NCBI RefSeq assembly: GCF_004010195.1
Contig: NC_057718.1
Location: 87,686,570-87,745,313 of the forward strand
Direction of reading: 5' to 3'
Length of the DNA: 58,744 nt
Source: Chiloscyllium plagiosum
Lineage: Eukaryota
Made by a program: the position numbers and the translations under genes
The notes under the pieces: model-generated
Seen by the model: the letters and a program-made list of their open reading frames with translations, nothing else
Told to the model about the DNA's origin: nothing
Database searches by the model: none
Part shown: one piece after another, positions 6,936 through 47,095 of the stretch
How the letters are laid out: each line of letters starts with the position of its first letter
Position numbering within the stretch: position 1 is the first letter of the stretch

Positions 6936-6944
6936 GTTAAAGGA

Positions 6945-10780: not shown

Positions 10781-10782
10781 CG

Positions 10783-12974: not shown

Positions 12975-13199
12975 GAGATGAAAGGCTTAACAATCAATTT
13001 ATCAATGTATCATTTCAGTTACATCACACTGTAAATTTTTGCTATAAATTATGTATTAGGATTGAGCCCTCCACTACCACCTGATGAAGGAGCGACGCTC
13101 CGAAAGCTAGTGTGCTTCCAATTAAACCTATTGGACTATCACCTGGTGTGGTGTGATTTTTAATTTTGTACACCCCAGTCCAACACCGGCATCTCCAAG
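12975..13199 (+). mobile_element. Penelope-derived terminal fragment (family B) abutting the minisatellite
   Basis: CACCTGATGAAGGAGCGACGCTCCGAAAGCTAGTG...CCCCAGTCCAACACCGGCATCTCC; homologous to 6353-6470 (-) and 54448-54520 (+). Confidence 0.7.
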
Positions 13200-13206
13200 T
13201 CGAATT

Positions 13207-14033
13207 TGCAGAGGGCACTGTTTCTGGAGAACTGGCCGTTGTTGCTGTGGCGGAGCTGGCGCTACAGAGGGCACTGTTTCTGGAGGACTGGCCGTTGTTG
13301 CTATGGCGGAGCCGGCGCTGCAGAGGGCACTGTTTCTGGAGGACTGGCCTTTTTGTTGCTGTGGTGGAGCCGGCGCTGCAGAGGGCACTGTTTCTGGAGG
13401 ACTGGCCGTTGTTGCTGTGGTGGAGCCGGCGCTGCAGAGGCTCCTGTTTATGGAGGACTGGTTGCTGTGGTGGAGCCGGCGCTGCAGAGGGCACTATTTC
13501 TGGAGGACTGGTTGCTGAGGTGGAGCCGGCGCTGCAGAGGGCACAGTGTCTGGAGGACTGGTTGCTGTGGTGGAGCCGGCGCTGCAGAGGGCACTATTTC
13601 TGGAGGACTGGTTGCTGTGGTGGAGCCGGCGCTGCAGAGGGCACAGTGTCTGGAGGACTTGTTGCTGTGGCGGAGCCGGCGCTGCAGAGGGCACTGTTTC
13701 TGGAGGACTGGTTGCTGTGGCGGAGCCGGCGCTGCAGAGGGCACTGTTTTTGGAGGACTGGTTGCTGTGGCGGAGCCGGCGCTGCAGAGGGCACAGTGTC
13801 TGGAGGACTGGTTGCTGTGGCGGAGCCGGCGCTGCAGACGGCACTGTTTCTGGAGGACCGGTTGCTGTGGCGGAGCCGGCGCTGCAGAGGGCACTGTGTC
13901 TGGAGGACCGGTTGCTGTGGCGGAGCCAGCGCTGTAGAGGGCACTGTTTCTGGAGGACCGGTTGCTGTGTCGGAGCCGGCGCTGCAGAGGGCACTGTTTT
14001 TGGAGGACTGGCCGCTGTTGCTGTGGCGGAGCT
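13207..14033. repeat. GC-rich minisatellite, 16 units of 50-58 bp
   Basis: Consensus GCTGCAGAGGGCACTGTTTCTGGAGGACTGGTTGCTGTGGCGGAGCCGGC. Unit starts have an exact 50-bp period from 13431 to 13981; longer 56-58 bp units start near 13207, 13261, 13317 and 13375. Confidence 0.97.
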
Positions 14034-14410
14034 GAAGCGTGTTGCCTGTCAGATCAAGCAGAGGCTCTAACGGACGTGTGGTGACTGCGGTGGCAGAGCG
14101 GGTGCCCGATGGGCGGTGGATCGGTGTGGGTGAGGCAGCTAAGGATGGTTCTGAGGAGGCTCATCAAGTGCTCTCTCCGGGATTACGGTTTCTGCCTGGC
14201 TTCGTTGCTGTTGTTGAGTTTAGCCTCGCTGTGTTACCAGCTGAACGGTGGGGCTCCGGCCCTGCTGCTGGAACTCCGCAAGTTTCTGGGTAGGTGCCAC
14301 GCCGGAGGACCTCCGCATCTCTGCCTCTGCCAGACAAAGCCTGAGGACCGCGGCTTTGTCTGGCCTGCTTTCCTCAGAGGGACCTTGGAGAAGAGTGAGG
14401 GACGGGAGGT
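13240..14410. promoter_or_regulatory. CpG-rich region over the probable promoter/5' end of the UST-like gene
   Basis: GC and CpG content are visibly higher than in the CpG-depleted background, and the region spans exon 1. The TSS cannot be determined. Confidence 0.55.
14109..14289 (+). CDS. UST: UST-like coding exon 1 (cytosolic tail and type II transmembrane anchor)
   Basis: ATG 14109 follows an in-frame TGA at 14082. It translates MGGGSVWVRQLRMVLRRLIKCSLRDYGFCLASLLLLSLASLCYQLNGGAPALLLELRKFL, resembling the vertebrate UST segment SLRDYGFCMATLL...YQLSGGPPRFLLDLRQYLG (recalled). Phase-1 donor G|GTAGGT at 14290. Confidence 0.85.
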
Positions 14411-14459
14411 GGGTGAGGGACAGACAGATAGGGATGGGGAGATGAGGGCTGGTGGGGGG

Positions 14460-14613
14460 NNNNNNNNNNNNNNNNNNNNNNNNNNNNNNNNNNNNNNNNN
14501 NNNNNNNNNNNNNNNNNNNNNNNNNNNNNNNNNNNNNNNNNNNNNNNNNNNNNNNNNNNNNNNNNNNNNNNNNNNNNNNNNNNNNNNNNNNNNNNNNNNN
14601 NNNNNNNNNNNNN
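14460..14613. other. Assembly gap (N run) in a G/A-rich tract
   Basis: Run of N. Confidence 1.
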
Positions 14614-15269
14614 GGCGGGTAAAAGAGGGGGGTGGGTTTTGTGTGAGAGATGGCGGTTCTGTACAACTAGGAGAATGTGAAGGGAGTATGTTGCGAAGGC
14701 ATGAGGTGTGTGTATGGGGGGGGTTGTGAGAATAGTGCAGGGGGATTGAGACTACTGTGGTTGGGAATGGGTCATAGAATATTTGGCAGAGAGAGTTAGA
14801 TGTATCAGAGTGTGAGGGAGAGGGGTGATTTACTGGATACTATGTTTCATTTACTTGTATTTAGTGTGAAGCTCAGTGTTCTTTTAGGAAATGTCGCATT
14901 CTTCCTTTTAGCTTAGGAATTTCCAACTGTACTATGTCTAAAGTTTGGAAAGTGATGTTTAAACAACCTCAAACTTAGTTTCCAACTTTAGAGGTGATGT
15001 GGAGGGTGGGAAATCATCTCGGAAGCTGAGGAATGGGCTAAAAAACAGTCTGAAAAGATATTAATGGAATCCTTGAGAGAAATGCTGGAAGTGAAAGTAG
15101 AAATTAACAATGTGCATCAGTTAGAAACATGAACATGCACATATAGGGGAGAACAGGTAAATTAAAATCACTAACTTTTCATCCCAATGGGCTGTGAAAT
15201 GTCCTTGCTGATATTTTTAGGACCGGTTGGATTTTGGTCATGTTCCAAATGATTGGCAAATAACATGGA

Positions 15270-16900
15270 TCAATTATAGTCCTACAGCATTGAAGCAGAC
15301 CCGTCCATCCAATCAGTCTGTGCTGACCATTATCACAAATTAAACTGGTCCCATCTGCTTGCACCTGGCCTATATCCCTCCAAATGTTTCATGGACTTAT
15401 CCAAATGTCTTTTTAACATTCGAAGTGTACCTGTATCCACCACTTCTGGAAGTTCATTCCACATGTGAACCACTGTTTTAAAAAAAAAATCCTCCTCATG
15501 TCTTTTTTAAATCTTGCTCTTCTTATGTTAAAAATCGGCCCCCTGGTCTTGAAATTTCATACCCTCAGGAAAAGACACTAGCCATTCATCTTATCTGTAT
15601 CCCTCATCATTTTATAAACCTCTATAAAGTCACCTCTCAACCTCCTAACCAGTGGAGCAAGTCCCAGCCTATCCAGCCTCTCCTTATAACTCAGACCTTC
15701 CATTTCCAACAACATCCAGGTTAATCTTTTTTGAACCCTGTCCAGTTTAATAATATCCTTCCTATTACAGGGTGACAAGAACTAGACACACTACTCCAGA
15801 AGAGGCCTCACCAATGTCTTGTACAACTAAACGCCTCCTTAACAACCCTGTCTACATGTGATGCAAACTTCGAAGAACTATGTATCTGAACCTCTAAGTC
15901 TCTGTGTTCTACAGCACTACTGAAGGAGAAAGTGAGGACTGCAGACACTGGACATTAGAGTCAAAAAGTGTGGTGCTGGAAAAGCAAAGCCAATCAGGCA
16001 GCATCCAAGGAGCAGAAGAGTTAGCATTTCCAGCTTAAGCTCTTCATCGCTGTTGACTCTCCTGCTCCTTGGATGCTGCCTGACCAGTTGTGCTTTTCTA
16101 CCGTCACACCTTTTACACTACTGAAGGCCCTATTTTTATTTTATAAGTCCTGCCCTTGTTTGTTTTACTAAGATGCAATACCGTGCATTTATCCAAATTA
16201 AACTCCATCTGCCATTCCTCAGCCCATTCACTCAATTGATCAAGATCTCTTTGTAATCTTAGATAACCTCTTTAACTGTCCACTATACCACCAATTTTGG
16301 TGTCATCTGCAAACTTACTAAGCATACCTTTTATATCCTCACCTAAATCATTTATGTAAATAATAAACAGGAGTATACCCATATCCGATCCCTATGGAGC
16401 ACCGCTGGTAACAGGCCTCCAGTCTGAAAAAACAACTCTCCACTATCATTCTGTCTCCTGCTGTTAAGCCAATTTATATTCAATTGGAAAGCTCACCCTG
16501 AATCCCATGTGATCCAATTTTACCAATTAGTCTATGTGGAACTTTGTCAAAGGCTTTGCTAAAGTCCACGTGAACACATCTACTGCTCTGCTCTTACCAA
16601 GCTTCTAGGTTACTTCCTCAAAAAGCTCAAATCAAGTTTGTGAGACATGATTTCCTTCACACAAAACCATGTTGACTATCACTAATCCTTCCTTGACACT
16701 CTAAATGCACACAAGTCCTATCTTTTAGAGTCACCTTCGACAACTTCCTTGACACTCTAAATGCACACAAGTCCTATCTTTTAGAGTCACCTTCGACAAC
16801 TTACCCACCACTGAAATCAGAGTTCATAGTTCTGAGGCTTTTGCAATCCCTTCCTAAACAACAGCACAATATGAGCTAGTCTCCAGTCTTCCGGCACCTC
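15270..16900 (-). mobile_element. CR1 LINE RT/3' fragment with a nested Penelope-derived insertion
   Basis: Minus-strand KLDRVQKRLT...RRLRGDFIEVYK and KFADDTK motifs. Insertion 15927-16115 is flanked by CACTACTGAAGG (15915-15926, 16116-16127). Confidence 0.85.
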
Positions 16901-18548
16901 TAAACATAGATTTCAATAAAGGCATTTTGGTAAAGGATTTTGTTGAAGTTCAACAAGAAGCCAAAACATAGAAATCACAAACTGCTTGGAAGATGAAAAA
17001 CTAAATGTTCATGTTTCAGGTCATGAGCACTGAATGAAGGGCTGGCAAATAACCAATGAATACTCCAGTCATAATAAGTGAATTAATGTGATGAATGACC
17101 TGCAATTCATTAGAAGAAGAAGGCTGAAATTGAACCAGACCCAGTGTGGAATGTGTTGGAGACAAAGTGTTGGGATAACACAAAATTGACTCAAAAAATG
17201 GGGCTGGGACAGATTCAGGGTTGTACTTTGATTAGATTAGAAATCATGGTCAGCACTCTATTCAGGCCATCATATCTGTGTTAACTCTCCAAGATCTACT
17301 TAGTGGATCCAATCTCTTACTCTTCTGTTTTTCAATTATTTCTCCATTTCCTTTTTTAAAAATATTTATGGTTTTCCTTTCACTTGTATTTTTGGTAGGG
17401 CTTGGCTATCTACTAAGGACACTCTGCTATAACAAATCTCTTGACCTCTACAATGTTCTTTTGACTTTAAATGAATGCTCGCCATTTAGAAACTCATCAG
17501 TGAGGGGACTGATTTTGCATTATCAAACTCAGGATTTGGAACATCTCTGTTAAATCCCTCATTCGTTATCCTTACTGAGACCAAACTCGTGCTCCTGACT
17601 AACCCTTCATACCCTCCTATTTGGAGTGAAAATTGTCTGAACCCTGACTGATGTGACATTTTCTAAAATAAGGATGGAAAATGAATCTCAGTATTCAAAA
17701 TGTGTTGAAATCAATTATCATTGAACATTACTGTCACTTTTGTTTTTGTAGGCAGTTGAGAAACCCATTTCTTTAAGTATAAGACCTTGTTCTTTCAACG
17801 CTTTGTGCATGAACTCTGAAATCTTGAGTCATTTTCAAATTTTATGTTTCATATACAATTCCTTTTTCTTTGCAGAACGTATCAGTTCATATCTGTTTGT
17901 TCAATACTTCATCTAATACCTGTCTACACCATGCAAGTAGTCTGTTAACATTCTCTGTCATCATCATGATTAATTGCTCTGCTTGTTTTTATTTTGTCTG
18001 ACTGTTGGTTTTATGCTTCCTGTAACTGCATCCTGCTCATTTGTAAATATATAAAAGTACATTTGGTACTTATCAATTGCGATAGTGTGCACATGATTTG
18101 GACATTATGTTCATTGATCACTAGAACATGGCAGCACTAATATATATTTGTAGATGCCTGAATCACGACCTGAACTCCAAACTGATTGATCCTATACCTG
18201 ACTAAGGACTGATTGACGTGAAAAAGGGAAGCTTAGCCAGATAGTGAACAGTGAGACTTCAAAATCTGAATTGCAGCATGCAGGTTCTTCACTAGGGCAG
18301 AGGAACTGAATTACTTAATTAATATAACAAAACAAAGAACTGTTGATTCTGGAAATGTGAAACAAAAAACAAAATTGCTGGAGAAAATCAGCAGATCTGG
18401 CAACATCTGTGGAAAGCAACCAGAGTTAATGTTTCAAGTACAGTAATTCTTCTACAGAACTGTTCTGACAAAGCTGACACTACTTGACACAGCTTCTGTT
18501 CCTCATTATGTTTGCTAGATTATATTCAGAGTCTCCTCGTTCAGTAAC

Positions 18549-18673
18549 CTGAAGAAGGGCCTGTGCCCGAAACGTCGAATCTCCTGTTCCCTGGATGCTG
18601 CCTGACCTGCTGTGCTGTTCCAGCAATAAAGTTTCAATTTTGATCTCCAGGATCTGCAGACCTCACTTTCTCC
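18549..18673 (+). mobile_element. Penelope-derived single-arm insertion (family A)
   Basis: Starts at CTGAAGAAGGGC and ends CCTCACTTTCTCC. Direct repeat TCTCCTCGTTCAGTAACCTG (18532-18551, 18669-18688) overlaps both element ends. Confidence 0.85.
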
Positions 18674-18769
18674 TCGTTCAGTAACCTGTCAGGGCTCCAT
18701 GTCTTTTTAAAATGTTGAGTTCATCATTATTTCCAGTACAACTTCGTGATATACATTTTAAAATAAGAA

Positions 18770-21280
18770 TTATGGGATATGGGTCTTGCTGGAAAAGCCA
18801 TCATTTATTGTTTTGAGAAGGTGGCAGTGAGCTGCCTGTATGAACTACAGGCAATGATGGTTACAGTTTGGAGGAGAGTGCCGACATTGGCAAAGGTTGC
18901 AACTTTGGAAGGTGTTGCCAGGGAGACCTAGTAGGTTGCTACAGTGCATCTTGTGGGTGGAACACACAAACCACTTTTCATTGACGGTGAACTTAGTGAA
19001 CGTTGGAAGTGTCAGATAGTGGTTTTTTTGGACATTTTTGGAGTTGGACTCAAACCACGCATTTGGAGAGTATTCCATCACAATTTTAACCTGTACCTTG
19101 TAGGTGGTGGACAGCCTCGGATAACCAGGAGATGATTGACTTCATAGCCACAGTGTTTGTTTGGCTGGTTTACTTCAGTATTTGGACAATGGTAACCCCC
19201 AGAATATTGATAGTGTGGGATTCAGCATTGGAGATGATCATTTTCTGACACGTGTGGCATTAATGTCACTTGCCACTTCATCAGCTCAAGTCGGAATGTT
19301 GTCAATGAGCTTGCTGCACTTGGACATTGATTGCTTATGTATCTGAGGAGTCATTAATGAAGTGAACATTATGCAATCATCAGCGAGCACCCTCATTTCT
19401 AACTTTATGATGGACGTTAAGTCATTGATGAAGCAACTGAAGATTGTTGGATCTTGGGCACTACCCCAAGGAACTCCTGCCAAGATGGGCTGGGCTGAGA
19501 TGGTTGACCTCTGACAACCAATACCATCTTCCTTTATGTTAGACATGACTTTAACCAGCAGACCATTGCCCACCATATCTCTTTGATAGCCAATCATAAA
19601 TTACCAGACCTGTTTGAAATCTGTTCCATTTAACACAGTACAGTATCCTTGCTGTGAAAATGGAACTTTGTCTCTATGAGGACTGTGCGTTCATCATACC
19701 TACAGATATTGTCATGAACAGATGTGGCTACTACAAATGCAGATAAGGTCAAGTAGATTTTTCCCACTTGTTAGTTCCTTCACATCTGTTGCAAGCTCCA
19801 TCTAGTAGTTACGTCTTTCAGGATGCAGCTAGCCTGGTCAATCACGGTGCTACCATGACACTGTTGATGAATGTTGAAGTCCCCCATGAAGAGTATATTG
19901 TGTGCCCTTGCCACCTGACTGAGCCCTCCAAGTGGTGTTCATCATGGTCAAGTATTTATTCATCAGCTCAGCAGCACAGTGGGCGGCGGGGTGGCACAGT
20001 GGTTAGCACTGCTGCCTCACAGCGCCTGAGACCCGGGTTCAGTTCCCGCCTCAGGCGACTGACTGTGTGGAGTTTGCACGTTCTCCCCGTGTCTGCGTGG
20101 GTTTCCTCCGGGTGCTCCGGTTTCCTCCCACTGTCCAAAGATGTGCAGGTCAGGTGAATTGGCCATGCTAAATTGCCCATAGTGTTAGGTAAGGGGCAAA
20201 TGTAGGGGTATGGGTGGGTTGCGCTTCGGTAGGTCGGTGTGGACTTGTTGGGCTGAAGGGCCTGTTTCCACACTGTAATGTAATCTAATCACAGTAGAAT
20301 GTTTCCTTGCCCAAGTTTGACTTGATGCCATGAGACTTCACAGGATCCAAAGTCAGTGTTGAGGACTCTGAAGGCAACTTCCTTCCAACAGTACACCACT
20401 GTGCCACCACCTCTGCTTGGTGTTCTGGTGGTAGGACAGATGTACCTAGGAATTCTGATGTTGTCTGGAACATTGTAAGAATGACTGTGTCGGAGTGTTG
20501 CTTGACTAGTCCGTGGGACAACTCTCCTAATTTTGGCATAAGTCTTCAGGAGGAAAGGTCATCAGAGGTGTTTGTTGTCATTTCTGTTGTCTTGATTACG
20601 AGGCTAAGCAATGTCACAAAGAGCTAAGCACATTTTAGAAGCTATTTAAGGGTCAACTGTATTGCTGTGGATTTAGAGATCTACATTTGGCCCACACTAG
20701 TTGAGGATATTTCTAAGGGACATGAATGAACCAAATGGTCTATATGAACATTGACAGTGTTTTGAGTTCATCAGTAGAGTAGCTTTTAATTCCTGGTTGA
20801 TAAATTAATTTCAGATTTCGCTGTCTATTTTATGGTATGTTTGGAGTCCACGTTCCCAGAGGTGTAACTGGATTACTAGTCTATTGATAATGCTATTACT
20901 CCATCACCTCCCCCTAGTTCTGGGCCTTAAATCTGCAGTATAACCAACAAGAATTTGTCAAGACCTGTGACCCTGGCTGTATACAGTGCCTTCTATAGTT
21001 TTATGGAATGAACCGTGTTGGCCAAAGACCAGCATTTTGCTGTGGGCCTCAGAAGGTGGTACGAGTGGATTATCTGCCCAGTACCTCTGCCTCACATGGT
21101 TGCAAATGCATCAGCTTTGTGAAGGAATGAGCTGGGCTCTCACATTATTGACTGTGAAGATGTTTGTGGAGCTACCCATACTGATTGCTTGTTTAATTGT
21201 TCACCATTCACCAGTGGAAGTTGCAGAATTTAGATGTGATTTGTTGGTTGTGACATTGCTTAGCTTTGTGTATGGCATAC
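18770..21280 (-). mobile_element. Old, decayed non-LTR retrotransposon (CR1/L2 group)
   Basis: Minus ORF 19286-19597 reads AGVPWGSAQDPTIFSCFINDL...LADDC (RT); endonuclease-like remnants near 20285-20540. Confidence 0.7.
19981..20289 (+). mobile_element. HE1-like V-SINE, young (CpGs retained)
   Basis: A/B boxes, V-domain and TAATC tail; flanked by CACAGT at 19975-19980 and 20290-20295. Confidence 0.95.
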
Positions 21281-23313: not shown

Positions 23314-23314
23314 A

Positions 23315-30391: not shown

Positions 30392-30717
30392 AGGGCGGCA
30401 TGGTGGCACAGTGGTTAGCACTGCCTCCTCACAGCGCCAGAGATCCTGGTTCAGTTCCTGCCTCAGGCAACTGTCTGTGTTGAGTTTACACGTTCTCCCT
30501 GTGTCTGCGTGGGTTTCCTCCGGGTGCTCCGGTTTCCTCCCACAGTCCAAAGATGTGCAGGTTAGGTGAATTGGCCATGCTAAATTGCCCGTAGTGTTAC
30601 GTGAAGGGATAAATGTGGGGGAATGGGTCTGGGTAGGTTGCTCTTCGGAGGGCCAGTGTGGACTTGTTGGGCCGAAGTGCCTGTTTCCAGAGTGTAAATA
30701 ACCTAATCTAATCTAAT
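30392..30717 (+). mobile_element. HE1-like V-SINE
   Basis: A/B boxes, V-domain and (CTAAT)n tail. Confidence 0.95.
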
Positions 30718-30979: not shown

Positions 30980-31170
30980 GGGCGGCACGGTGGCACAGTG
31001 GTTAGCACTGCTGCCTTGCAGTGTCAGAGACCCGGGTTCAATTCCCGCTTCAGGCGACGGACTGTGTAGAGTTTGCACGTTCTCCCTGTGTCTGCGTGGG
31101 TTTCCTCCGGGTACTCCGGTTTCCTCCCACAGTCCAAAGATGTGCAGGTTAGGTGGATTGGCCATGCGGT
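30980..31170 (+). mobile_element. HE1-like V-SINE, 3'-truncated
   Basis: GGGCGGCACGGTGGCACAGTGG head, GGTTCAATTCC B box and V-domain. Confidence 0.9.
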
Positions 31171-32877
31171 AAAAGATTAACAATGATTGCATGAATGGTA
31201 GAGCTTGCTTAGGGAACTATATGATTCACTCCTATTTCTTATGCAGTTAGGCCAATGTATTCTGCTCCACAGTGTTAGTTTCTGGATGAAAATAGTTACA
31301 CTCAATTAACAAGTAGTGCACAGCAAGGTTGCTTCTGCAAGATGCTGTTTATATTTACTTATTGCCCTCCTAGCTCAGGTAATTTCCAAAATTATGGCAA
31401 TGTAAGTCATATCCTCCTTCCCTGTATCTCAGCTGGAAAACTGAAAAAAGAGAGTTATTAAAAGAATTAAATAACAAACCTAGACACAGGCATCTGACTT
31501 AAATTACTATTGCTGCACATGCGCAATATGTCCAATCAAGCCTGCTCAACCTTGTCTGATTTTCCACCTTAGGTCGACTTTCATACCCTAGTCACAACTT
31601 GGAGGAAAAAAATTATCCTGTACTCAATCCCAAGTGGCTGACTCCTGACTGAAAAGTTGTTCTGTGCTTTAAGAACCTATGCTTCTGGATAGCAGCCTCT
31701 CAGCATTTCCCCTGTCAAACCTCAAGAATTTTATACCTTAACCTCAAGTTTTAATGAAATCTCCTCTTGTGCCTCTCAATACCAGAAAATTTTATTTGAT
31801 CTCTCCTCACTTGTTGACTCTCTCATCCTGGGAATTAATCTAGCAAAACCTTTGTTCCTCCTCTTGTCATCCCGTTCCCGTTCTTAACGTTGTTAACTGG
31901 ATTCATACAATGAAAACTTTTCCCCTTGTTAGCTGACCTTGCATACTGAATGCTTCCAATATTGTTAAGTGGCTTTACATAATGACTGCTTTTCCACCTT
32001 GTTAACCCATTACCCTTGCCTCCAACACCCCATTGTTAACTGAAATTCTTACTTGATCTGAGTCAGCTGAACCTTTTGTTTCATAAAACTCAACTTAACT
32101 TTGCCTGCCTGCTTATACCCTATACACATTCTCATTCTAAGGTAAGTATAAAGATGACTTGAGTCTTTAATATGGTAAAATATCCCAAGGTGCTTCACCA
32201 GGATTATTATCCCTCAAAATTTTGACATTTATCTTTGCTTGGCTAAGGAGATCAAAATTGCACATGGTATTCCAAAGTCCAACAATTATAGCAAAACCTC
32301 CTTATTCCAACCTTCATTCAGTAAAGGCCAGCATAACATTTGCTTTCCTAATTGCTTATTGTATTGCATGATAACTTGTTGTAGGTTTTGTGCAGGGGTT
32401 CACAAGTTATTTGAATATCAACCATTATTAGTGTCATATTATTTTACTATTTTCCAGTTCATTCCTATCAAAGTAGATAATTAAATATTTTCTCACATTG
32501 GTCTGTTTCCATGCTGTACATCTCTGTGACACTGACTAGTCTCCATTTGTCCTCTCTTCATCCCAGACGGCTGCAGTTCTTTGCAGGCTTTGTACCTTCC
32601 TCACAGCTTACTTCCCCACTTAGCATTCTATTATCAGCAAATCTGGATACATTACATTCCTTCCTCCTCATCTAAGCTATCAATATAAGTTGTAAATTAC
32701 TGAAATCCAATCTCTGATCCTTGCAGCATTCCACCAATTATAATCTGCCAACATAGAAAATTGTTTATTCCTGCATTCTGTTTTCTATCTGTTGGTCAGT
32801 GCTCAGTGCATACCAATATATCTCTAATTCCATGAACCATTGTCTTGTGTAGCAATCTCTTGTGCTACAGTGTATCA

Positions 32878-32971
32878 GTGATTCCTGAAGAAGGGTTTAT
32901 GCCCGAAATGTCGATTCTCCTGCTCCTTGGATGCTGCCTGATCTGCTGCGCTTTTCCAGTAACACATTTTT
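32878..32971 (+). mobile_element. Penelope-derived single-arm insertion (family A)
   Basis: ATTCCTGAAGAAGGGTTTATGCCCGAAA...; flanked by CAGTGTATCA (32868-32877, 32972-32981). Confidence 0.8.
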
Positions 32972-33526
32972 CAGTGTATCAAATACCTGTGTAAAAATCC
33001 TATCTATGTTGACCTTCCTTATCTACCCTCCTAATTATACCCCTCAAAATTGATAGATTTATTAAGTACTATTCCCTTTCATAAAACAATTTGATTATAG
33101 CAAAATAAGGAGGTTTTGCTATAATTGTTGGACTTTGGAATACCATGTGCAATTTTGATTTCCTTAGCCAAGCAAAGATAAATGTCAAAATTTTGAGGGA
33201 TAATAATCCTGGTGAATATGATTCTTGAAGTGATCTGTTAACATGTTCCTCATGGCAGATTGTAGTGATTCCCAACTATTGATGTCAAACCAACTAACTA
33301 TAATTCCCTTTTTACTTGCTTCCTCCTTTCCTGAACAGCGAAGATATGTTTGCTATCTTCTAATACGTGAAGAGGACTGTTCTTGAAAACGAATAGATCG
33401 CTGTAGGTGCCTTCCAGGGATTTGTCAGTTTTAGGTCCATTAATATTTTAGAGCTGATATTAATTTTATGTCCCTCATGCACAGTAGACCCTTGATTTCC
33501 TCACTAGTTCTAGGATGTTGTTTACA

Positions 33527-36500
33527 TAGAACATTACAGCGTAGTACAGGCCCTTCGGCCCTCGATGTTGCGCCGCCCTATCTTACTAATCTGAAGCCCA
33601 TCCCACCTACACTATTCCATTTACATCCATATGCCTATCCAATGAAGACTTAAATGAACTTAAACTTGGCGAATCTACTACCATTTCAGGCAATGCATTC
33701 CATATCCTTACTACTCTCTGAGTAAAGAAACTACCTCTGACATCTGTCTTATACCTATCTCCCCTCACTTTAAAGCTGTGTCCCCTCGTGTTTGCCTTCC
33801 CCATGCTTGGAAAAAGGCTCTCCCTGTCCACTCTATCTAACCCTCTGATTATCTTGTACGTCTCTATTAAGTCACCTCTTAACCTTCTTTTCTCTAGCGA
33901 GAACAGCCTCAAGGCCCTCAGCCTTTCCTTGTAAGACATTCCCTCCATACCAGGCAACATCCTAGTAAATCTCCTCTGCACCCTATCCAAAGCTTCAACA
34001 TCCTTCTTATAATGCGGTGACCAGAACTGTACACAATACTCCAAGTGTGGCCACACCAGAGATTTGTACAGCTGCAGCATAACCTCCTGGTTCCAAAACT
34101 CAATCCCTCTATTAATAAAGGCCAAAACACTGTATGCCTTCTTAACAACCCTGTCAATCTGGGTGGCAACTTTCAGGGATCTGTGTACATGGACACCGAG
34201 ATCCCTCTGCTCATCCGCCCTCCCTAGAATCCTCCCATTAGCCCAGTACTCTGCATTCCGATTACTCCGTCCAACCTCACACGTGTCCACATTAAATTCC
34301 ATTTGCCACCTCTCAGCCCAGCTCTGCATCCTATCTATGTCTCTCTGCAACCTACTACATCCTTTATCACTATCCAACTCCTTAGTGTCGTCTGCGAATT
34401 TGCTAACCCACCCTTCTATGCCCTCATCCAAGTCATTTATAAAAATGACGAACAGCAGTGGACCTAACACTGACCCTTGTGATATGTCGCTAGTAACTGG
34501 ACACCAAGATGAACATGTTCCATCAACTACAACCCTCTGTTTTCTTTCAGTAAGCCAATTACTTATCCAAACTGCTATGTCTCCCACAATCCCATTCCTC
34601 CGCATTTTGTATAATAGCCTACTGTGGGGAACCTTATCGAATGCCTTGTTGAAATCCATATACACCACATCAACCGGTTTACTCTCATCTACCTGTTTGG
34701 TCACTTTGTCAAAAAACTCAATAAGATTCGTTAGGCACGACCTACCCTTCACAAAACCGTGCTGACTGTCCCAGATCAGATTATTCTTTTGTAGATGGTT
34801 ATAAATCCTATCTCTTATAACCTTTTCCAACACTTTACCAACAACTGAAGTGAGACTCACTGGTCTGTAATTACCAGCGTTGTCTCTACTACCCTTTTTG
34901 AACAGGGGAACCACATTTGCTATCCTCCAGTCTTCAGGCACTATTCCTGCAGACAATGATGATTTGAAGATCATTGCCAAAGGCTCGGCAATCTCTTTCC
35001 TTGCTTCCCAGAGGATCCTAGGATAGATCCCATCTGGTTAAAATCTTCAAGGAGAAAATGAGGACTGCAGATGCTGGAGATCAGAGCTGAAAATGTGTTG
35101 CTGGAAAAGCGCAGCAGGTCAGGCAGCATCCAAAGAACAGGTGAATCGACGTTTCGGGCATAATCCTGAAGAAGGGCTTATGCCCGAAACGTCGATTCTC
35201 CTGATCCTTGGATGCTGCCTGACCTGCTGCGCTTTTCCAGCAACACATTTTCAGCTCTGGATCCCATCTGGCCCAGGGGACTTGTCTATCTTCACATTCT
35301 GTAATAATTCCAATACCTCTTCCTTATGAACCTCAATCTCTTCTAGTCTAGATGAAAGTATCTCTGTATCTTCCTCGCCAACATTGTCATTTTCTATGTT
35401 GAACACTGTTGAAAAATGTTTATTTAGTGTTTCCCCTATCTTCTCTGCCTCCACACACAACTTCCCACTACTATCCTTGATTGGCCCTAATTTAATTCTC
35501 GTCATTCTTTTATTCCTGACATACCTATGGAAAGCCTTAGGATTAACCCTGATCCTATCTGCCAACAACATCTCATGTCTCCTCCTGGCTCTTCTGAGCT
35601 CTCTTTTTAGGTCTTTCCTGGCTTCCTTGTAACCCTCAAGCGCCCTATCTGAGTTTTCACATTTTGCCCTATCATAAGCCGCCTTCTTCTTGACCATAGA
35701 TTCCACTTTCTTAGTAAACCACGGCTCATGCGTTCTATAACATCTGCCCTATCTAACAGGTACATACTTATCTGGGACACACTGGAGCTTTTCCTTGAAT
35801 AAGCTCCACATTTTTAATGTGCTCATCCCCTGCAGTTTTCTCCCCCAATCTACGCTTCCTAAATCTTTCCTAATTGCATCATAGTTTCCGTTCCCCCAGC
35901 TGTAACTCCTGCTTGGTGGATTATGCCTATCCCTTTCCATCACTAAAGTAAACTTGACAGAATTGTGATCGCTATCTCCAAAGTGCTCGCCTACTTCCAC
36001 ATCTAACACCTGGCCAGGCTCGTTACCCAGTACTAAATCTAAAGTGGCTTCGCCCCTTGTAGGCCTGTCTATATATACTGTGTCAGGAAGCCCTCCTGCA
36101 CACAATGGACAAAAACTGACTCATCTATAGTACTCTCGTTCTGTAGTGTTCCCGGTCAATATTTGGATAGTTGAAGTCCCCCATGAGAGCTACCTTGCCT
36201 CTCTTACTCCTATCGAGAATCATCTTTGCAATCCTTTCCTCTACATCTCTGGGACTATTCGGAGGCCTATAGAAAACTCCCAGCATGATGACTTCTCCTT
36301 TCCTGTTTCTAACCTCAGCCCATAGTACCTCAATTGATGAGTCCCCAAACGTCCTTTCTACAACTGTAATATTGTCCCTGATCAATAATGCCATACATCC
36401 CCCTCTTTTACCATCTTCTCTGTTCTTACTGAAATATCTGAATCCTGGAACCTGCAACACCCATTCCTGCCCCTGCTCTATCCGTGTCTCTGTAATGGCC

Positions 36501-37475
36501 ACAACATCGAAGTCGCAGGTACCAACCCACGCTGCCAGTTCACCCACTTTATTTCGGATGCTCCTCGCGTTGAAGTATACACACTTCAAACCAGGTTCAT
36601 ACTTGCCAGTGTCAGGTAAATGATTTTGTAACTCCCTACTCTCATCCTCTTCTGCACCTGTCCTACAATTTTGGTTCCCATCCCCCTGCTGTATTTAAAT
36701 CCACCTGAATAGCTTTAGCGAATTTCCCACCCAGGATATTGGTACCCCTTTCGTTTAGATGAAGACCATCTTGCTTGTAGAGGTCCCACCTACCCCAGAA
36801 AGAGCTCCAGTTATTCAAAAACCCGAAACCCTCCCTACTGCACCATCCCTGTAGCCATGTGTTCACCTCCTTTCTCTCCCTATTCCTCACCTCACTAGCA
36901 CATGGCACGGGCAGCAAACCAGAGAAAACAACTCTATTTGTCCTAGCTCTAAGCTTCCATCCTAGCTCCCTGAATTTCTGTCTCAAGTCCCCATCTCTCT
37001 TCCCACCTATGTCGTTGGTGCCAATGTGGACCACGACTTGGGGCTGCTCCCCCCTCCCCCTGAAGGATCCCAAGAACACAATCAGAGACATCACGGACCC
37101 TGGCATCCGGGAGGCAACACACCAACCGTGAATCTCTCTCATCCCCACAGAACCCCCTATCTGTCCCCCTAATTCTCTAGTCCCCAATGACTACTGCTCT
37201 GTTCCTTTTCCCCCTTCCCTTCTGAGCAGCAGGTGCCCCACTGCTTTCCCCTGGTAAGTCATCCCCCCCCCACAGTATCCAAAACGGTATACTTATTGTT
37301 GAGGGGAATGGTCACAGGGGATCCCTGCACTCCCTGCCAGTTCCCTTTCTGTCCCCGAACTATCACCCATCTATCTTTTTCTTTTATCTGGGGAGTGACT
37401 ACCTCTCTAAGTCCTGTCAATAACTCCCTCTGCCTCCCGAATGATCTTTGTGTCTTCCATTGTGAATGTATCTGA
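33527..37475 (-). mobile_element. Near full-length CR1 LINE (SGNH-esterase ORF1; APE-RT ORF2), disrupted
   Basis: ORF1 VVHIGTNDIG...DGLHLN (36663-37187); APE KCVYFNARSI...MGDFN...LDLVL...SDH (35749-36589); 457-aa RT ORF 33607-34980 with YRPVSLTS and FADD. Confidence 0.95.
35038..35259. mobile_element. Penelope-derived fold-back element (family A) inside CR1 ORF2
   Basis: Inverted arms about 35161-35165; flanked by GATCCCATCTGG (35026-35037, 35260-35271); splits the CR1 motif KSPGPDGI|YPRILWE. Confidence 0.9.
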
Positions 37476-39206
37476 TCAGAAAGCATATCAAATGTATGGT
37501 CCAGGAGAAGATGCAAGTCAGCGCAAATGAGATAGGATCTTATGTAGCATTTTGCATGTGAACATTTATTTGTAGGATATTCTAGTTACCCAATGTCCTT
37601 TCTTTTTCCACTTTGCTGATGAGTGTGGTAAATCTGACTTCTGAGTCATAGGGTTGTGGGTCAAATGCCATTGTAGTGCCTTAACACAAAGTCTGGGCTG
37701 ACGCACATCTGCGCGGTCAGAGGTTCCCTTTTTTGGATGAGTTTTAAAGCCAAAACTGTGCCATCCCTGTCAAGTGATTTTTGAACAATCAATGTAACTG
37801 TTTTGAAGAAGAGTGTATTCTCCCTACGTCTTGACTGATTTATCCCTTGATCAGCAATCAAAACAGATTATCTGATTATTGTTAAATGTTTTCTGGTCCT
37901 TACTGTGTACAGTTGGTTGTCACATTTCCCATTTCACAATAGTCATTGCACTTCAAAAGAAATATTGATGATAATACGCTTTGGGGTTCCTGAGATTATG
38001 AAACCACAAGATAAAATCAAGTTTTTAAAAAAAAAATCGAATTGTACTCTGCAAGTACTAATTAATAGATATTAACAGAGTTATGATTTCTACTGATTTT
38101 ATTTTCTTAAAATCCTTAAATAAGCATGCAGGTGAAAAGCCTCCTTCCTTGCATGGGCTACACTAATCCAGTTCTGGGCTTAGTCATGGTACACGGTGGC
38201 ATGAAAAAACATGCAATTTAATCAGCAAATGGGACTAGAATAGTTTAGGATGTCTGGGCGGCATGGACGAGTTGGACTAATCAGCACACCCATTACTAGA
38301 TTACTAGGTCTAAAAACTAAGGCTAAGAAAAGGAAGTGTAAAATATGAATTTAAGGATAAGAAATGGTTTTATCTCCGGTCTTGGACATGAATTTCTACT
38401 TTTATTTCTGAGTTGTATTCTGGGAAATTTTCAGATTCTTTATTTTGTTCTGATAAAGTGACAAAAATAGATGAATGTAAGACGGAAGTGTGGATTGTGC
38501 TGTAGTTCTTTTGAAGCAAAAATGATTAATTCTGGAGTGACTGATTCTGGGAAAGTATATACAGTACTTAGAAAATTTGTTTTCACAGTCAAATACTGAA
38601 TCATCTTACACTTTAAAATGCTAGGAAATGGCAAAGAAACTGATGCAATGTTAAGTATATATCCCGCTTAAGTAATAGCAAGTTCTTGCCTGATTGAATT
38701 TCCATATATTATTTTCATCTGTCCTAGGTGAGAGGATGGGGTGTTTCAGTTCATATGATCCCAAAGAGAAGAACTCCTGAAATGCAATGCAATAAATGAA
38801 AGAATTTAGCTTATCCATTTTACTGAAATTAGTAGCTTGAGGAATAAGGAATTGGCAGCAAAGACATTTGAAATAGAGTTTTGTGTAAGATTGGAAGAGT
38901 TAATGAGTTCTTACATCTTTGTTATCACTAGAAGCATGAGGATCATGTATAGGCCATTCAATTCTTTGAAGCCTATTCCTAAGTTTTTGGGGTTCTTGTG
39001 GTGCAATGGTAGTGTCCCAACCTCAGACAAGATATCTGGGTTCAATTCCCACCAGCTCCAGAGGTGTGTCATAATAAATCTGAACAGGTTGATTTAAAAG
39101 AAACTTCCCAAGTTCTACATAATTTGAGTTGCATGCCTGATATTGTGCTCGCTTTTGTTTACCACATTTTCTGATTCTTACTGAATGTTGACTCCTTTAA
39201 GAATTC

Positions 39207-39412
39207 GTGGAGAAAGTGAGGGCTGCAGATGCTGGAGATCAGAGCTGAAAATGTGTTGCTGGAAAAGCGCAGCAGGTCAGGCAGCATCCAAGGAACAGGA
39301 GAATCGACGTTTCGGGCATAATCCTGAAGAAGGGCTTATGCCCGAAACATCGATTCTCCTGTTCCTTGGATGCTGCCTGACCTGCTGCGCTTTTCCAGCA
39401 ACACATTTTCAG
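39207..39412. mobile_element. Penelope-derived fold-back element (family A)
   Basis: Nearly identical to the 35050 copy; flanked by CTCCTTTAAGAATTC (39192-39206, 39413-39427). Confidence 0.9.
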
Positions 39413-39535
39413 CTCCTTTAAGAATTCCCTTACTTTATTTGATACCAGTTTTCATGCTCACAATTTTATTATATTTATGTTTTGGTCAACATTTGCAACC
39501 GATTTATGATCATTTTGTTTTGTTTTGTCTTTCAG

Positions 39536-39579
39536 GAAATTCGTCTTTTCTGGATGGGTATCATCATGAACCCACTAAG
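39536..39579 (+). CDS. UST: UST-like coding exon 2 (44 bp, stem region)
   Basis: Polypyrimidine tract and TTTCAG acceptor; donor AAG|GTAAAT. Completes Gly with exon 1 and reads GNSSFLDGYHHEPTK (cf. UST GNSTYLDDHGPPPSK). Phase 1 in and phase 0 out fit both neighbours. Confidence 0.85.
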
Positions 39580-42007
39580 GTAAATAGGATTATTGGGATA
39601 GAAGGTTCAGCTGCTACTTGTGGGGCAAATAGAAAATATTCCTCCTGAGTGTCCTATGTGTCTTTAAATATGCCCGTCCGTCTTTTCAGCTTAGAATATC
39701 ATATGCGATCAATTCAGGTCACTAGTGAAACTGAAAGGCAACCATTAATTATCTTCAATTGACTTCTCTGTTTGCATTCATGATTAAATTGTTATTGAGT
39801 GTTAGACTATCAGTGAGTAGTGTTAATTTTTGTCAATGACAGTAGAGTAGAAGTTAATCACTCTTACTGGTATTAATTAAGAATTTGAGGACTTGTATTA
39901 ATATAGCACCTTTCACATCCTCAGAGCATCCCAAGGCACTTGACAATCAAAGTACATTGGAATTTTCTTATCATATTGCTGCATGATTAATAAATACTGC
40001 AGCTAATTTACACGCAAGTTTCCACCGGTATTCATGAGATGAAATAAAACACTAATAAAAACAAGGGAGTGGAAGCTAATGCAGCAGTTACATAATTTAA
40101 GGTTATATCCAAAGTGGGACAGTGTTCAGTTCTCTACTGTACATTGAGAAAGATATATTGAATATGCAAGGCCTTAGTGCAGATTTAGCAGAATATTACC
40201 AGAGTTGTTAAAATGTAAAGTATAAATTTGCTCTGGCAGTATTTTGCTTTTAGAATTTTGAGGAATAAGCTCATTAAAATGATCAAATGTTAAAAGAACT
40301 TGAAACAGATAAGTCAAGAGAAACAATTTCCTCTGGGGATTTACAATCAAGGGTGAGATTATGCAGGGGTAATGTGACAAAGCGCATCTGTATGAAAATG
40401 ACAATGGAAATCTGGAATTCTAACTACCTCCATATTTCTCCCTGCCCCTCAGATTTTTGATAAACCAGGTTAGTAAGGACTACAGAAATGAAGTTAAAAT
40501 GCTGGTGCCATTAAATGGAAGAACTGGCTCAATCAATTGATTGGGCTACTCTCCATGTTCCTGAGGAATTCTGCTCCAGCATCACTTGCATGGCAAAATT
40601 TCTCTTAATCTTAATTTTGCAGTGATTACTCATCACTGACTTCCAAATTAAAGGACATAGTCTTTACGTACTCACTCTGTCAAGACACTTGCTAATTTTA
40701 AAAATCAAGTCTCCTTATGGCAAATTTAGGATGTGTTGACAAAATATCCATGTTGTTCAGAGGAAATTTATGACATACAGTCATGCACTAAAAGATATCA
40801 GTATTCTGGGCGGAGAGAAAAACTGGAAAGGCAGTTCAGTGGTCTCTGTCATCAGAGTTTGCTGAGATGACCGTTTTGTTGATCAGAAAACTGATCAGCA
40901 AATCTCAGTTCCTTCTCCTGGTTCTTAGAATTGTTTGCAAGAGACCAGGATGATTAGTTCACCCTTATGTTTAATAAATAAGTCTCTGACTTATTAATTA
41001 AACATATTAGCTTATAGTAACCGATGAGAGGAAATAAAATGGCTGTCATCAAGCTTTTACTGCAGATAACAACAGCTCCTTTCCTTCGAGGTCAAATAGC
41101 TTCTGACCCAAGCATTCACAGCTACAGGCTTTTAAGCTAGCTAGGAGCCAATCCCATAGTTGTTGGCAGGCTGGAGGTTTTTTTCCTGGGCTTTTAAAAT
41201 TATCCTCCCTTTTCAATCCACAATCAAAAATGTTTAAAAAAAAAGATACAATAGCTGTCTTGGTCGATCATTCTGGCTGACGCAGTAACTCCACCCATGA
41301 CAGTTATTTTCATACATTCACCACCATCAGCCTAAAGAATCTGAATCAAAATTGCCTTTGTTGTCCCTTTAGGTTTAAAGTTGTCTGCTGTTGTTAATGA
41401 GATTATTTTAACATATTGGGGTGTATCTCCTGTTGGGATGTTATAATAGTAGTGGAAACTCTGGTTGTACATGTACTTTGTTTTCGGCGTAAAGTTAGTG
41501 CAGCAGATAAAGCTCGAAAGGACGTTATCTTATTTATGCTAATCTTGTATCAGAGATCAAAATACTTCCTTTTGTGGCTGCCCTCGTTGAGGCTGTTTTT
41601 TTTGGGGGGGAGTTGGGTTGGGGTGGGGAGGGGAGACTATATTTGGGTTTCAGGAGCTCATTTTTAATTTTCAATATCTCACTTCTTATGTGATGCAGTC
41701 AGACAATAGCAATACCTTCTAAATTTATGTTGACATATTGAGTATTTGGACTCTCGCAGAAGCAGGATTAGAAGAATTAATTAATATTCTCAAAAATGAC
41801 CAACACTTCAATAAAATAAGAGCCAATGCACACAAGTAAAGTATTGATTTCCCAACTGCAGCAATACTTAACTTGACACTAGAAAATGTGCACAATTCAA
41901 CAATGAGTTTTATTTTTCAAAATAACTGAAATCTTCTACACACAATCATCACCTCAAGCACACTTTCTGCAAACTGATGAGGTCACAGCTAATACAGGTA
42001 CTGTATA

Positions 42008-43385: not shown

Positions 43386-45399
43386 ATGAGTAAGAACTTT
43401 TAAAAAAGTGCTGACAACTATTAATCTCTCCAATTATTGACTACATTGATAATGTGCCTGATCACTTTAAGTCTGGTGAATGAACATCTGCCTGTTTCCT
43501 TAGCTGAAGTTGTAAAGGCCACAGAGATGTTCCAAGATTTCTCACTGCTTCTTGACAACATGTTTGACTGCATTGACAACATGGCAGCCTGCTGCATTCA
43601 TCTGAAGGCATCATGCCTAGCAGAAAAAACATTGAAAATGTGAATGCATTTAAAAAATAGACATGTTTCACAGTTACTGCTTCATTCCCTTAATTTTTTA
43701 TTGACATAAAACATGTTTGTAAACAAATTGGATTACATAGCAGTTTACTTGCCTGTCTCAAAGCTCCACATAACAGGGTGGATAATGCCTCTCATTTGAT
43801 CTACCTTGATTCTATTGTAGTAACTTCTGTATGTATATAGCCCTAAGATATAGATTCTCCATTCAAGAGATCAGATTACCTGAGCAGTCTCGAGTTTCTC
43901 TGTTTCCCAGCTGCTTGAGAATTCAGCTGACAGGTTTAAAACTATTCACCGCACAAGCACAACAGAAGTGTAAAGTGTCTTAATGACCAAAAATAGCTGA
44001 TTTGTTTCCATACATTAATTAGAACAGAAAAATACTTTGAAGCTTTTTTTAGAAAGTCAAAAATAATGTATCTTACAGGCTTACTTATTCTGGCAAACTG
44101 GTTACCAACTGAGCTACTATGTCAATTAACTATATCCCCCTTAATCCCAAACACTCATTCATACACAGACAAGATGTGATTTACACAGCTCTGCAGCACA
44201 ATTTTGAGTGGGAAAAATAGGAGAAACTTTTTGTCAGTTCCATTTGTTGATGAGTTCATATTGTGCAATGATTGGAAATCTTCAGACCAGATTTCAGATT
44301 CAGTTGAGAAACAGTTCAGAGCCTAATAATTGAACCTTTATCAAGTGGATTTGTTTTAATCTATTTAGCTAAGGTATTAAAAGTTCTGCTTTCATCACAA
44401 AGATCTTACTCTTGCAGGCAAGAAAGACAGTACTACATCCTTACAAATTTCTACAGACAGCTGCCCAAAAGCTTCCATTGTACACTGAAAAAACATCTAT
44501 TACTTCAGCCTAGAGGCTCTTGCTAGGTGACCGCAGCATAAATACATTCGGGTTTGTTTACTCAACAATTAAAGCAATAAAATTCCAGCCTTCTCTCTCT
44601 CTCTCTCAAAAGTCGTTGATCACTACTTTCCAAAGCCACGTTTTGTTTATAAATAGCAACTAGTTAGTCTCCTTTAACCTTCTGACTTTCCAGTTCCAGG
44701 CAATCACATAAATCATTTGCAACCCAATAATGCCTAAATGTCCATTTTCCAGTTCTCTTATCCATGAATATATGTTCACATCATGTCTCCATCCTTTGAA
44801 GATGAAACCCCCTTTTCAAATACCTTTGATTATGATATAACATGACTCATACAACAATAACAAAATTCTCGTTCACTCTTTAGACAAAATTTATACAATT
44901 TCCTGCCATCACTTAATCTCCAAGCTATTTTGACAATATTACATTTTTGATAACATGTCAGCAATTAATTAATATAGTGACATTGTTCGGCTGTTGCAGT
45001 AGGTTAATGTATCATAATTAGGTACACTCCTGAAAGCCTTGTTTATTCATCTTGAAATGAAACTGAAGTGTTTTTAAATTGAATAACATGACTTAACGTT
45101 GATGCAACCCAGTTGGTGTGAACAAAAAGCTGATATCTCTTCAGTTTTTAATGTCTTTGGTCCTTGCCAAAACTCTTTCAATACATGAATCTTAGTAAGA
45201 AACAATACACTGCCAACAATGCAATCTTTTAATCAAGGAATTGGTTACAAATTCATTTGTATTACTACATTTGCTTTTCTGTAATCAGTGCATAATTTAG
45301 TTAATGCATTGGGTTTAGGAACTGATACAACTGGTAGATTTCATCTGCTATGCCTCTGTTTATTCAAGTCACTTTCTAACTTGTACCAAATCTCTGTTT

Positions 45400-46400
45400 T
45401 CACCTGAGTTTATGTTCCCCAGCTAAAATTATGAATGTTGTTGTACTGGCGCTGTTTCCCTTTTAACCACATCTGTGTGTATCTCTACAGATTTCTTAGA
45501 ACTCAGTGAGTCACTACGCTTGATCTTTATTTTGCTCTTCGTCCAACGAGGAAAATATGGTGTCTAATTGTCCCAGTATTTCAGCATTGGCTAATCTGAA
45601 GTGGGAGTCATGTTGTGATTGCCTGCATCTCCTTATACCTCACCATTATTATGTCTGTCGTCCTTTACTATTCCCATCACCTAACTCATTTGATCCTTAG
45701 CTCCTCCATCCAATATTATTTTAATATATTTGTGACCATTTATTCTGAGAGCTGCATACATGGCACATTTGTTTCATCCTTTCAAATTCTTTGCAGGTCA
45801 GCACAGGCTGTTTCCATAAGTTTTAAAACATTTGGCTGTATGTTTCAGGAGCCAACTCATATGCACCATGAATAGCCTTTTCTTTAACTGCCTCATGATC
45901 TGCTTCATTGATGCCTCTTCTGACAGTGAGGCATACATTTCTTTTGTTCCATCCATCAACCTTTTCTGCGTGGGCTGTGTCCCATTTTCCTTCAGCCGCT
46001 TCATTTGTTTTGCTGTGTCTTTTTCATACGATATAATGCCTGCATATCCTTTACGTTAAATTTCATAACAGCCTGTGGACATTTAAACATTCCTTACTGG
46101 ATTTTAGCTTATGGCTAGATTTTTTTTCTTATCAAAACCTTCCTATGCATGAAATATGTTCTTTTTTTTAAAGACTCCAATTTCTACTTGAACTTCCTCT
46201 ACTTCTCTCTGTTCTGAAACTTCAATTTTAGCCATTTGCATTTCTTAAGTTTTCTGCTTTTAGCTGAAGTTCAAGTATTTTAAGTTCCATTTCCCATTTG
46301 TGCTTTAATTTCCTTTTCTGGTTCAAGCGACTTCATCATTAACTTCAGTGATTTACCACTTTGTGTACATGGTCACTCTTGTATTTTCACCAATTCCAAA
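45400..46400 (-). mobile_element. Second Gypsy (Gmr1-like) remnant, gag region
   Basis: Frameshifted minus translation EMYASLSEEAS / DHEAVKEKAIHGAYELAPETYSQMF*NLWKQP resembles Gypsy gag (AYELVPEAYRQKFR). Confidence 0.6.
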
Positions 46401-46749
46401 TGCTGTGCCAGTGTGTTAATTATCTCTGCCTTCCTACCTTTTGCAGAAAATTCTATCGTTATCACCTCCCTTTCTTGCCTTCGTTAAATCTTCGAAATTC
46501 ATCAGAGAAGCTGCTGCCATATTTTTTAAAAACTGCTTCGCAAGCCAGTTTTTTTAAATATGAAAGACTTGATATCCGTACTTTTAACTAATTGCCATTT
46601 GTCCATATCCAATTTCACAATGTCCATGTCCAAACAATCCTACACTAGTACCTCGAGCTTATTCTTGACTCCGGCAGGAGGAGTACACTGGAAATCAAGC
46701 CCCGTAATGCCACATCAAAAGTGAAAACGTCTTATTCAATTATCAGGTG

Positions 46750-47095
46750 ACAATGGGGACTGCAGTTGCTGGAGAAATCAGAGTTGATAAAGCACAGCGC
46801 TGGAAAAGGCACAGCAGGTCAGATATCATCTGAGGACCAAGCGAGTCAACATTTCGGGCAGTCCTGAAGAAGGGTCCTGCCTGAAAGGAATGCTGCCTGA
46901 CCTGCTGTACCTTTTCCAGCGCCACACTTAATTAACTCCTCTTCAATCACCTTCAATAAAAACCCCCAAAAAAACTGTGACTGTTGGAAATCAGAAACAA
47001 AAAACAGGAATTGTTAGACAAGCTCTGCAGGTCTGACAGCATCTGTGGAGAGAAGTCAGAGTTAATGTTTCGGTCCTGTGACCCTCAGACTGAAG
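46750..47095. mobile_element. Older Penelope-derived fold-back and terminal fragments
   Basis: GGACTGCAG.TGCTGGAG...CCTGAAGAAGGG...TGCTGCCTGACCTGCTG, then a family-C end. Confidence 0.7.

Follow-up and report, generated by a model that had tools for sequence, protein, structure and literature searches.

Minimal hammerhead ribozyme motifs in mostly decayed Penelope-like element tails in and around the UST gene of the shark Chiloscyllium plagiosum

The DNA stretch of Chiloscyllium plagiosum analyzed here (58,744 nucleotides; NC_057718.1, positions 87,686,570 to 87,745,313 of the forward strand, assembly GCF_004010195.1; hereafter the window) carries a uronyl 2-sulfotransferase (UST) gene and scattered tails of Penelope-like elements (PLEs) with hammerhead ribozyme motifs. 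It is shark DNA, and the best match of coding exon 52867-53028 is to a carpet-shark UST protein (98%). The gene lies on the plus strand from 14109 to 56870 and likely runs on beyond the window end; the tblastn exon map covers residues 1-205 of 379, with coding exons at approximately 14109-14291, 39535-39582, 52873-53028, 53978-54061, and 56715-56870. Protein match and exon map thus bear out the original prediction of a "UST-like" gene on this strand, while PDB sequence searches with the UST exons were uninformative. The related claim that sense-strand copies of the motif lie in the UST pre-mRNA applies to 6 of the 13 copies tabulated, all within introns, but not to the intact family B copy at 13078, which precedes the start codon (14109) by about 1 kb. 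Our analysis indicates that the copies are very probably 5'-truncated and mostly decayed 3'-end copies (pseudo-long terminal repeat, pLTR, plus tail) of three PLE families, A, B and C, with the known minimal type I hammerhead ribozyme (min-HHR), a ribozyme that is likely slow, dependent on dimers or protein, and likely inactive in solo copies.

A strict descriptor, consisting of CUGANGA, an optional extra base, a stem II of at least 4 bp, GAAA, a Watson-Crick NN', UH and stem I, retrieved four sites in the whole window (13081+, 18549+, 35166+, and 7315-) and none in each of 200 dinucleotide shuffles. With a loose pattern, 18 matches were obtained where shuffles averaged 7.1; 1 of 100 shuffles reached 18, and alone this pattern does not look significant. 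CUGANGA, GAAA, and UH are all kept in 7 of the 13 copies; four of these seven also keep the Watson-Crick palindrome, and stem I reaches at least 2 bp in three of those four. An additional unpaired A between A9 and position 10.1 is present in every copy (13/13). The closing pair 10.1-11.1 is G-C at all four intact sites and G-U at several decayed copies. Helix III and loop 3 are absent, and a palindrome is found instead, reading ACGU in 4/9 family A and AGCU in 2/3 family B copies. Helix I is short, with 1-4 bp in intact copies, the site at 18549 having a single pair. The predicted cut sites (GUC^ at 35193 and CUA^ at 13109) and the motif coordinates overall proved correct, except that the minus-strand family A motif, placed at 7292-7315, really spans 7286-7317.

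Four family A copies are situated in sense orientation in UST intron 1. Two of them are fold-back insertions, namely 35051-35259 (+), with a 12-nt target-site duplication (TSD) at 35026 and 35260, and 39209-39415 (+), with a 15-nt TSD. The former contains an intact min-HHR at 35162-35197, with the cut predicted after 35193 and an inverted arm ahead of the motif, while the latter, whose end is separated from UST exon 2 by about 120 nt, carries a hammerhead from 39324 whose palindrome has been lost (ACAU). Their target-site repeats differ, yet the hairpin-tip junction is identical in both, which leaves two readings: spread of the hairpin form as a unit, or repeated formation of this junction. 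The region 39204-39415 is a near-perfect hairpin of about 85 bp ahead of the small exon 2 (39535-39582), and could act as an ADAR substrate or influence splicing. The 35051 insertion splits a long remnant of the long interspersed nuclear element (LINE) type at 33607-37585 (-), CR1-like by eye, which includes a 476-aa open reverse transcriptase (RT) stretch (RVT_1, E 1.8e-29); many shorter fragments of similar LINEs occur across the window.

The other two intron 1 copies are solo tails. The one at 18548-18676 (+) has an intact core and ACGU, and a stem I of 1 bp. Its target-site repeat (18532-18551/18669-18688) overlaps the first bases (CUG) of the 18549 core, so that the 5' strand of stem I comes from the target DNA; this 5' junction likely reflects microhomology. 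The second, at 32881-32972 (+), has an intact core, the palindrome AUGU and a 10-nt TSD. It is contained in a 797-nt stretch flanked by 113-nt inverted arms (32194-32306 and 33104-33216) that are 99% complementary, and the whole unit is possibly a young DNA-transposon-like element. A third fold-back insertion, at 7190-7410, carries motifs on both strands: an intact min-HHR on the minus strand (7317-7286) and a plus-strand copy from 7319 without C3, with a 15-nt TSD at 7175 and 7410. Of the five family A motifs listed as intact by the original prediction, those at 35166, 7315 and 18549 are so, the last with its one-pair stem I, but 39324 has lost its palindrome and 32885 retains only a G-U wobble in AUGU. 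An older family A copy at 7760-8235 (+) comprises a weak GIY-YIG C-terminal remnant (approximately 7770-7835), a pyrimidine-rich 3' untranslated region (UTR), a decayed hammerhead from 8076 and a partial tandem tail. The copy at 11347-11690 (-) includes about 200 nt of 3' UTR and a hammerhead from 11473 with G12 changed and AUGU as palindrome. The decayed fold-back at 46799-46929 (+), in UST intron 2, has a hammerhead from 46864 that is deleted after GAAA. Finally, a decayed fold-back with a 12-nt TSD was found at 15927-16115, a copy absent from the prediction.

The intact family B tail at 13078-13198 (+) contains a min-HHR at 13078-13112 with 3 bp in stem I, 5 bp in stem II, AGCU and a cut predicted after 13109. 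A GC-rich tandem array of approximately 50-nt units (13207-14070), with a related fragment at 11872-11963, separates it from UST exon 1. A further family B copy with an inverted arm (6350-6624, -; 8-nt TSD) sits inside a PLE open reading frame (ORF) remnant and has a hammerhead from 6466 with three of five stem II pairs and no palindrome, and a decayed one is located in UST intron 4 (54448-54544, +; G8 changed). Family C is represented by a decayed copy at 18340-18460 (-), whose motif from 18457 reads CUGUAGA with three of five stem II pairs and ACAU, and which is matched by a family A covariance model (E 0.02), and by a partial copy at 46985-47090 (-). Further decayed family C fragments, also outside the prediction, are present at 12843-12965, 11938-12018, and 3797-3878.

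The family C motif was assessed by aligning two raw RNA runs and two DNA contig sets to 18330-18690 at 80% likeness. In other copies, core position 6 is A in 4347/4791 and 8141/9096 of the contig depth (approximately 90%) and in 10/11 RNA reads, the free core position 7 varies (approximately 14% of contig depth), and two stem II pairs are regained with the letters that prevail at 18447, 18445, and 18440. Since other copies restore core and stem II, the reconstruction of this family proposed in the prediction is valid despite the local copy being dead and no intact one being found in the window. The window copies of family C read CA or UG in the palindrome column, the two expected decay products of CG, which suggests an original ACGU.

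A broken PLE ORF spanning the RT core to the GIY-YIG C-terminus was identified at 5505-6925 (-), split by the family B insertion, through tblastn with RT and GIY-YIG proteins (E down to 1e-28). A HMMER scan with this remnant gave 431 matches at E <= 0.001. Both RVT_1 and GIY-YIG were present in 9 of 12 matching proteins scanned, with GIY-YIG mostly below the Pfam curated cut-off, and the ESM Atlas returned HTH_animal, GIY-YIG, and RVT_1 clusters at 0.90-0.91. The remnant thus has a single ORF with RT followed by a C-terminal GIY-YIG, as in endonuclease-positive (EN+) PLEs, and its cysteine-rich linker before GIY-YIG, judged by eye, would be Neptune/Nematis-like. An inverted, 5'-truncated copy of the endonuclease end (6932-7158, +) adjoins it, which is a typical PLE arrangement. 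According to the available part of Craig et al. (2021; PMC8557442), PLE insertions are 5'-truncated, adjoin an inverted copy and bear a tail of 30-40 bp at one end. All three traits of EN+ PLEs were observed here: 5' truncation, an inverted copy at the 5' end, and a last segment of about 30 nt, the tail, on one arm only of the fold-back copies. Direct repeats of 10-20 nt (TSDs) border 6 of the 9 family A stretches tested, while repeats of 5-8 nt were found at the edges of the four family B and C stretches tested.

Placement of the motif in a PLE pLTR is suggested for family A by the neighboring remnants and by the position of the 8076 motif, which lies after an endonuclease C-terminal remnant (tblastn E 0.001 to protein P0123 within a 500-nt stretch), and for family C by a tail segment common to family A. 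The pyrimidine-rich UTR is common to the 8076 and 11473 copies, with an alignment score of 137.5 compared to a maximum of 114 in 200 shuffles. The PLE tail family is highly repeated and present in sequencing runs of four organisms, none of the runs listed as containing it being registered as RNA.

The features of these copies closely follow those of published min-HHRs, cited here from the portions of each source that were available. Cervera and de la Peña (2014; PMC4209133) defined the loop-less min-HHR and judged helix III and loop 3 unnecessary; they pointed out the additional base between positions 9 and 10.1, the G-C pair, and the palindrome, described the families as "full of covariations," observed low activity for dimers and none for monomers, and suggested host or helper factors. 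The window copies share with them CUGANGA, the extra base, a G-started helix II, GAAA, a palindromic NN', UH and a short helix I, as well as the occurrence as solo and opposite-strand pairs and of several families per genome. Palindromes with CG, GC, UA, or AU appear in Figure S3 of that paper, together with stems I of 2 bp (in Culex, Drosophila, and Oikopleura), CAC/GUG stems (Lottia, Petromyzon), AGCU (Chrysemys), and a CUA site (Marsupenaeus). Differences are that the host is here a shark, a word absent from the portion of the supplement searched, and that the helix II of family A, at 4 bp, ranks among the shortest published. The prediction that the Penelope tails carry type I hammerheads of minimal form, in which a palindrome takes the place of stem III and dimers or protein are needed, is supported as an identification and agrees with the published model, but its "ultra-minimal" motif is not a new form, because the min-HHR with the same features had already been described there.

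Palindromic, very short stem III and type I architecture are also shared with the small PLE hammerheads of Lünse, Weinberg and Breaker (RNA Biol 14:1499), which, as summarized in the part of a review consulted (PMC6765202), cleave as dimers at low rates. In the anole PLE studied by Frangieh et al. (2024; PMC11167929, available part), cleavage occurs only with protein, insertion in vitro needs no cleavage and no RNA-seq ends were found at the site. The window copies resemble this element, Poseidon PAc, in that stem III is not annotated, its two RT start sites explain a one-ended tail, and RNA-seq ends at the cut are lacking; PAc, for its part, belongs to the Penelope/Poseidon clade and has its motif at the ORF start, while the family A motif lies in the 3' UTR. 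Non-LTR retrozymes, reported in the one chondrichthyan sampled (Li, Clavereau and Pollet, 2026; bioRxiv 10.64898/2026.07.22.740005, available part), are likewise PLE pLTR-derived, with type I hammerheads and many solo copies. However, they form head-to-tail arrays with a motif per unit, whereas the window copies are solo or inverted and kilobases apart, an arrangement that sets them outside that class. Similarly, the amniote ultraconserved intronic hammerheads RECK and CTCL (PMC6155905, available part) lie within vertebrate gene introns, but they are conserved single loci drawn with tertiary interactions, in contrast to high-copy decaying insertions with TSDs. Our literature search yielded no paper on shark PLE hammerheads, although the Lünse paper, supplements that were not seen, and Repbase or Dfam may hold examples.

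It appears that the hammerhead fold is poorly accessible in several copies. It is predicted to be worse than the best in-context fold by 35.9 kcal/mol at 35166, 30.1 at 39324, and 48.8 at 7315, because the inverted arm pairs over GAAA and the cut site; for the hairpin at 39200-39420 the predicted energy is -170.4 kcal/mol (z -21.9). At 13078 the predicted penalty is 1.4 kcal/mol in short and 4.5 in long context, and this copy, upstream of the UST coding region, would be the best candidate for cutting on the basis of these folds. The palindromic helix is predicted to be worth -1.7 (ACGU) or -2.5 (AGCU) kcal/mol. When two monomers were cofolded, the dimeric hammerhead was not the best structure, but the program cannot represent its crossed topology, hence this is no test of dimerization.

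Concerning cleavage in vivo, RNA ends were sought at the family A cut in one raw RNA run (X23; 2,777 reads aligned, approximately 2% of the run) and none were piled up there, nor did many molecules start or stop at any other place, a result confined to family A. Depth climbs across the cut, with bins of 615+788 followed by 711+948. The reads derive from other copies, since the unique flank of the locus has no depth; X23 bears the same species label as X10, a contig of which is identical to the window over 18394-18575. The original prediction had hinted at an effect on the UST pre-mRNA. This is unsupported: core and palindrome are kept by 2 of the 6 sense intronic copies, one of them has a stem I of 1 bp, the fold predicted for the other hides it within a long hairpin, and no end pile was seen. 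The solo genomic copies are likely inactive as ribozymes, and the effect of the copies on the host gene is likely small.

Compensatory changes had been claimed for stem I (UC/GA, CAC/GUG, and GUU/AAC), stem II and the palindrome (ACGU versus AGCU). By eye these swaps are seen between families, but within family A none of eight pairs changes on both sides. In seven family A copies, every stem II cell remains paired, with three changes that each affect one side and give G-U. Columns of CpG in the family A motif are changed in 7/40 cells versus 7/184 for non-CpG (p 0.005). Conservation of the core does not significantly exceed that of the tail (3/88 vs. 20/256, p 0.22), and the sample is small. 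The CpG-biased decay and the lack of a significant advantage of core over tail fit selection in active parents followed by neutral decay after insertion; the stem swaps between families likely reflect selection in active parent elements and not in the window copies. A family A covariance model run on the window recovers the A copies and the family C copy mentioned above, and family B is not among its 26 matches.

Several results weigh against deriving the copies from PLE 3' ends with min-HHRs. The 5676-6197 ORF by itself has no Pfam match, and the decayed PLE ORF yielded no match in two word-based protein searches. The endonuclease remnant before the 8076 motif is weak and had no match in the whole-window tblastn. 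Family B has no direct link to a PLE ORF in the window and is tied to PLEs by motif and insertion style only, nor does the window contain a full-length parent joining families B and C directly to the PLE ORF. As to the RNA evidence, X23 is a fragmented poly(A) single-cell library and as such a weak test of cleavage, and its sister run X24 had no aligned reads. We nevertheless regard the derivation from PLE tails as very probable. Published work suggests that, in a tandem PLE transcript, two motifs could pair via the 4-nt palindrome and thereby supply helix III, or, alternatively, that a PLE protein might chaperone the hammerhead fold. The anatomy of copies having both the motif and the downstream tail suggests that they would have been copied from RNA uncut at that motif, in which case cutting must be slow or conditional.

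Could the motifs be chance look-alikes within ordinary short repeats? The shuffle mean of the loose pattern, the lack of any hammerhead family among 22 Rfam matches up to E 5 (where the copies, without helix III, fall outside the canonical type I family) and the lack of two-sided pair changes in family A would be in line with such a view. It has nonetheless been largely refuted already by the four strict sites against none in 200 shuffles, by a single architecture across three families with different stems, by family C reads in which the free position 7 is variable while position 6 and stem II pairs are regained, and by an exact match to the published consensus in the available part of PMC4209133; we consider chance resemblance extremely improbable. 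Separately, the Rfam matches, all sub-threshold and mostly to hairpin microRNA families on the fold-back copies, were rejected as long-inverted-repeat artefacts. The 29 loci retrieved by a metagenome scan for the tail pattern were taken as chance, since their agreement with the window never went past 25 nt, and a scan of viral contigs with the family B pattern gave no matches. It is also very unlikely, if slightly less so, that, among the sense copies in introns, some work as active or domesticated ribozymes that cut the UST pre-mRNA and tune its expression, e.g., through cis pairing within the intron. The four sense family A copies in intron 1, one of them close to exon 2, the ACGU kept by both 18549 and 35166 and the detection of family A sequence in RNA reads are compatible with this role. 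On the other hand, 35166 and 39324 are predicted to be in hairpins 30-36 kcal/mol more stable than the hammerhead, 18549 has its 1-bp stem I, and 39324, 46864, and 54448 are broken. In addition, cis partners would be 2-17 kb apart and joined by a 4-bp helix III worth only about -1.7 kcal/mol, read ends do not pile up where family A would be cut, and the core shows no significantly stronger conservation than the tail.

A different proposal is that, during integration, the PLE reverse transcriptase stops at the folded motif or primes the second strand there, with short motif-plus-tail and fold-back copies as the signature and cutting as a secondary property. We consider this unlikely, but it addresses the only feature that is left unexplained, i.e., the clustering of 5' ends at the motif start: 8 of 10 family A copies keeping the core start begin between about 6 nt upstream of C3 and 2 nt inside it, and not at the cut 28 nt further. 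The common fold-back junction of 35166 and 39324, with different TSDs, and the insertion of the anole PLE in vitro without need of cleavage (PMC11167929, available part) point in the same direction. However, the clustering comes from a small sample chosen for having the motif, the starts of at least five further arms or fragments of family A lie downstream, within the motif or the tail, and a pyrimidine-rich UTR or a promoter start could give the same pattern. Moreover, an RT stop is compatible with the derivation from PLE tails and not exclusive of it. The extended form of this idea, according to which the hammerhead fold serves mainly as an RT stop or strand-switch signal that spawns very abundant short motif-plus-tail and fold-back hairpin elements, some of them maybe spreading non-autonomously, as the 35166/39324 junction might suggest, seems to us somewhat more doubtful still. 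If true, the PLE hammerhead would have a job other than cutting.

Other repeats were also noted in the window. Open stretches at 8622-9032 and 10440-10817 (+) resemble by eye zinc-knuckle and integrase remnants of an LTR retroelement. A dispersed repeat of approximately 216 nt, similar by eye to a short interspersed nuclear element, occurs at 12514-12729, 19981-20196, 30393-30608, and 30980-31195.

Our findings add three repeat families of a shark to a motif class that was already known. The function of PLE hammerheads is still considered open in the available part of Craig et al. (2021; PMC8557442), and although the present finding does not answer this question, the copy-rich shark genome is a good place to test their role.

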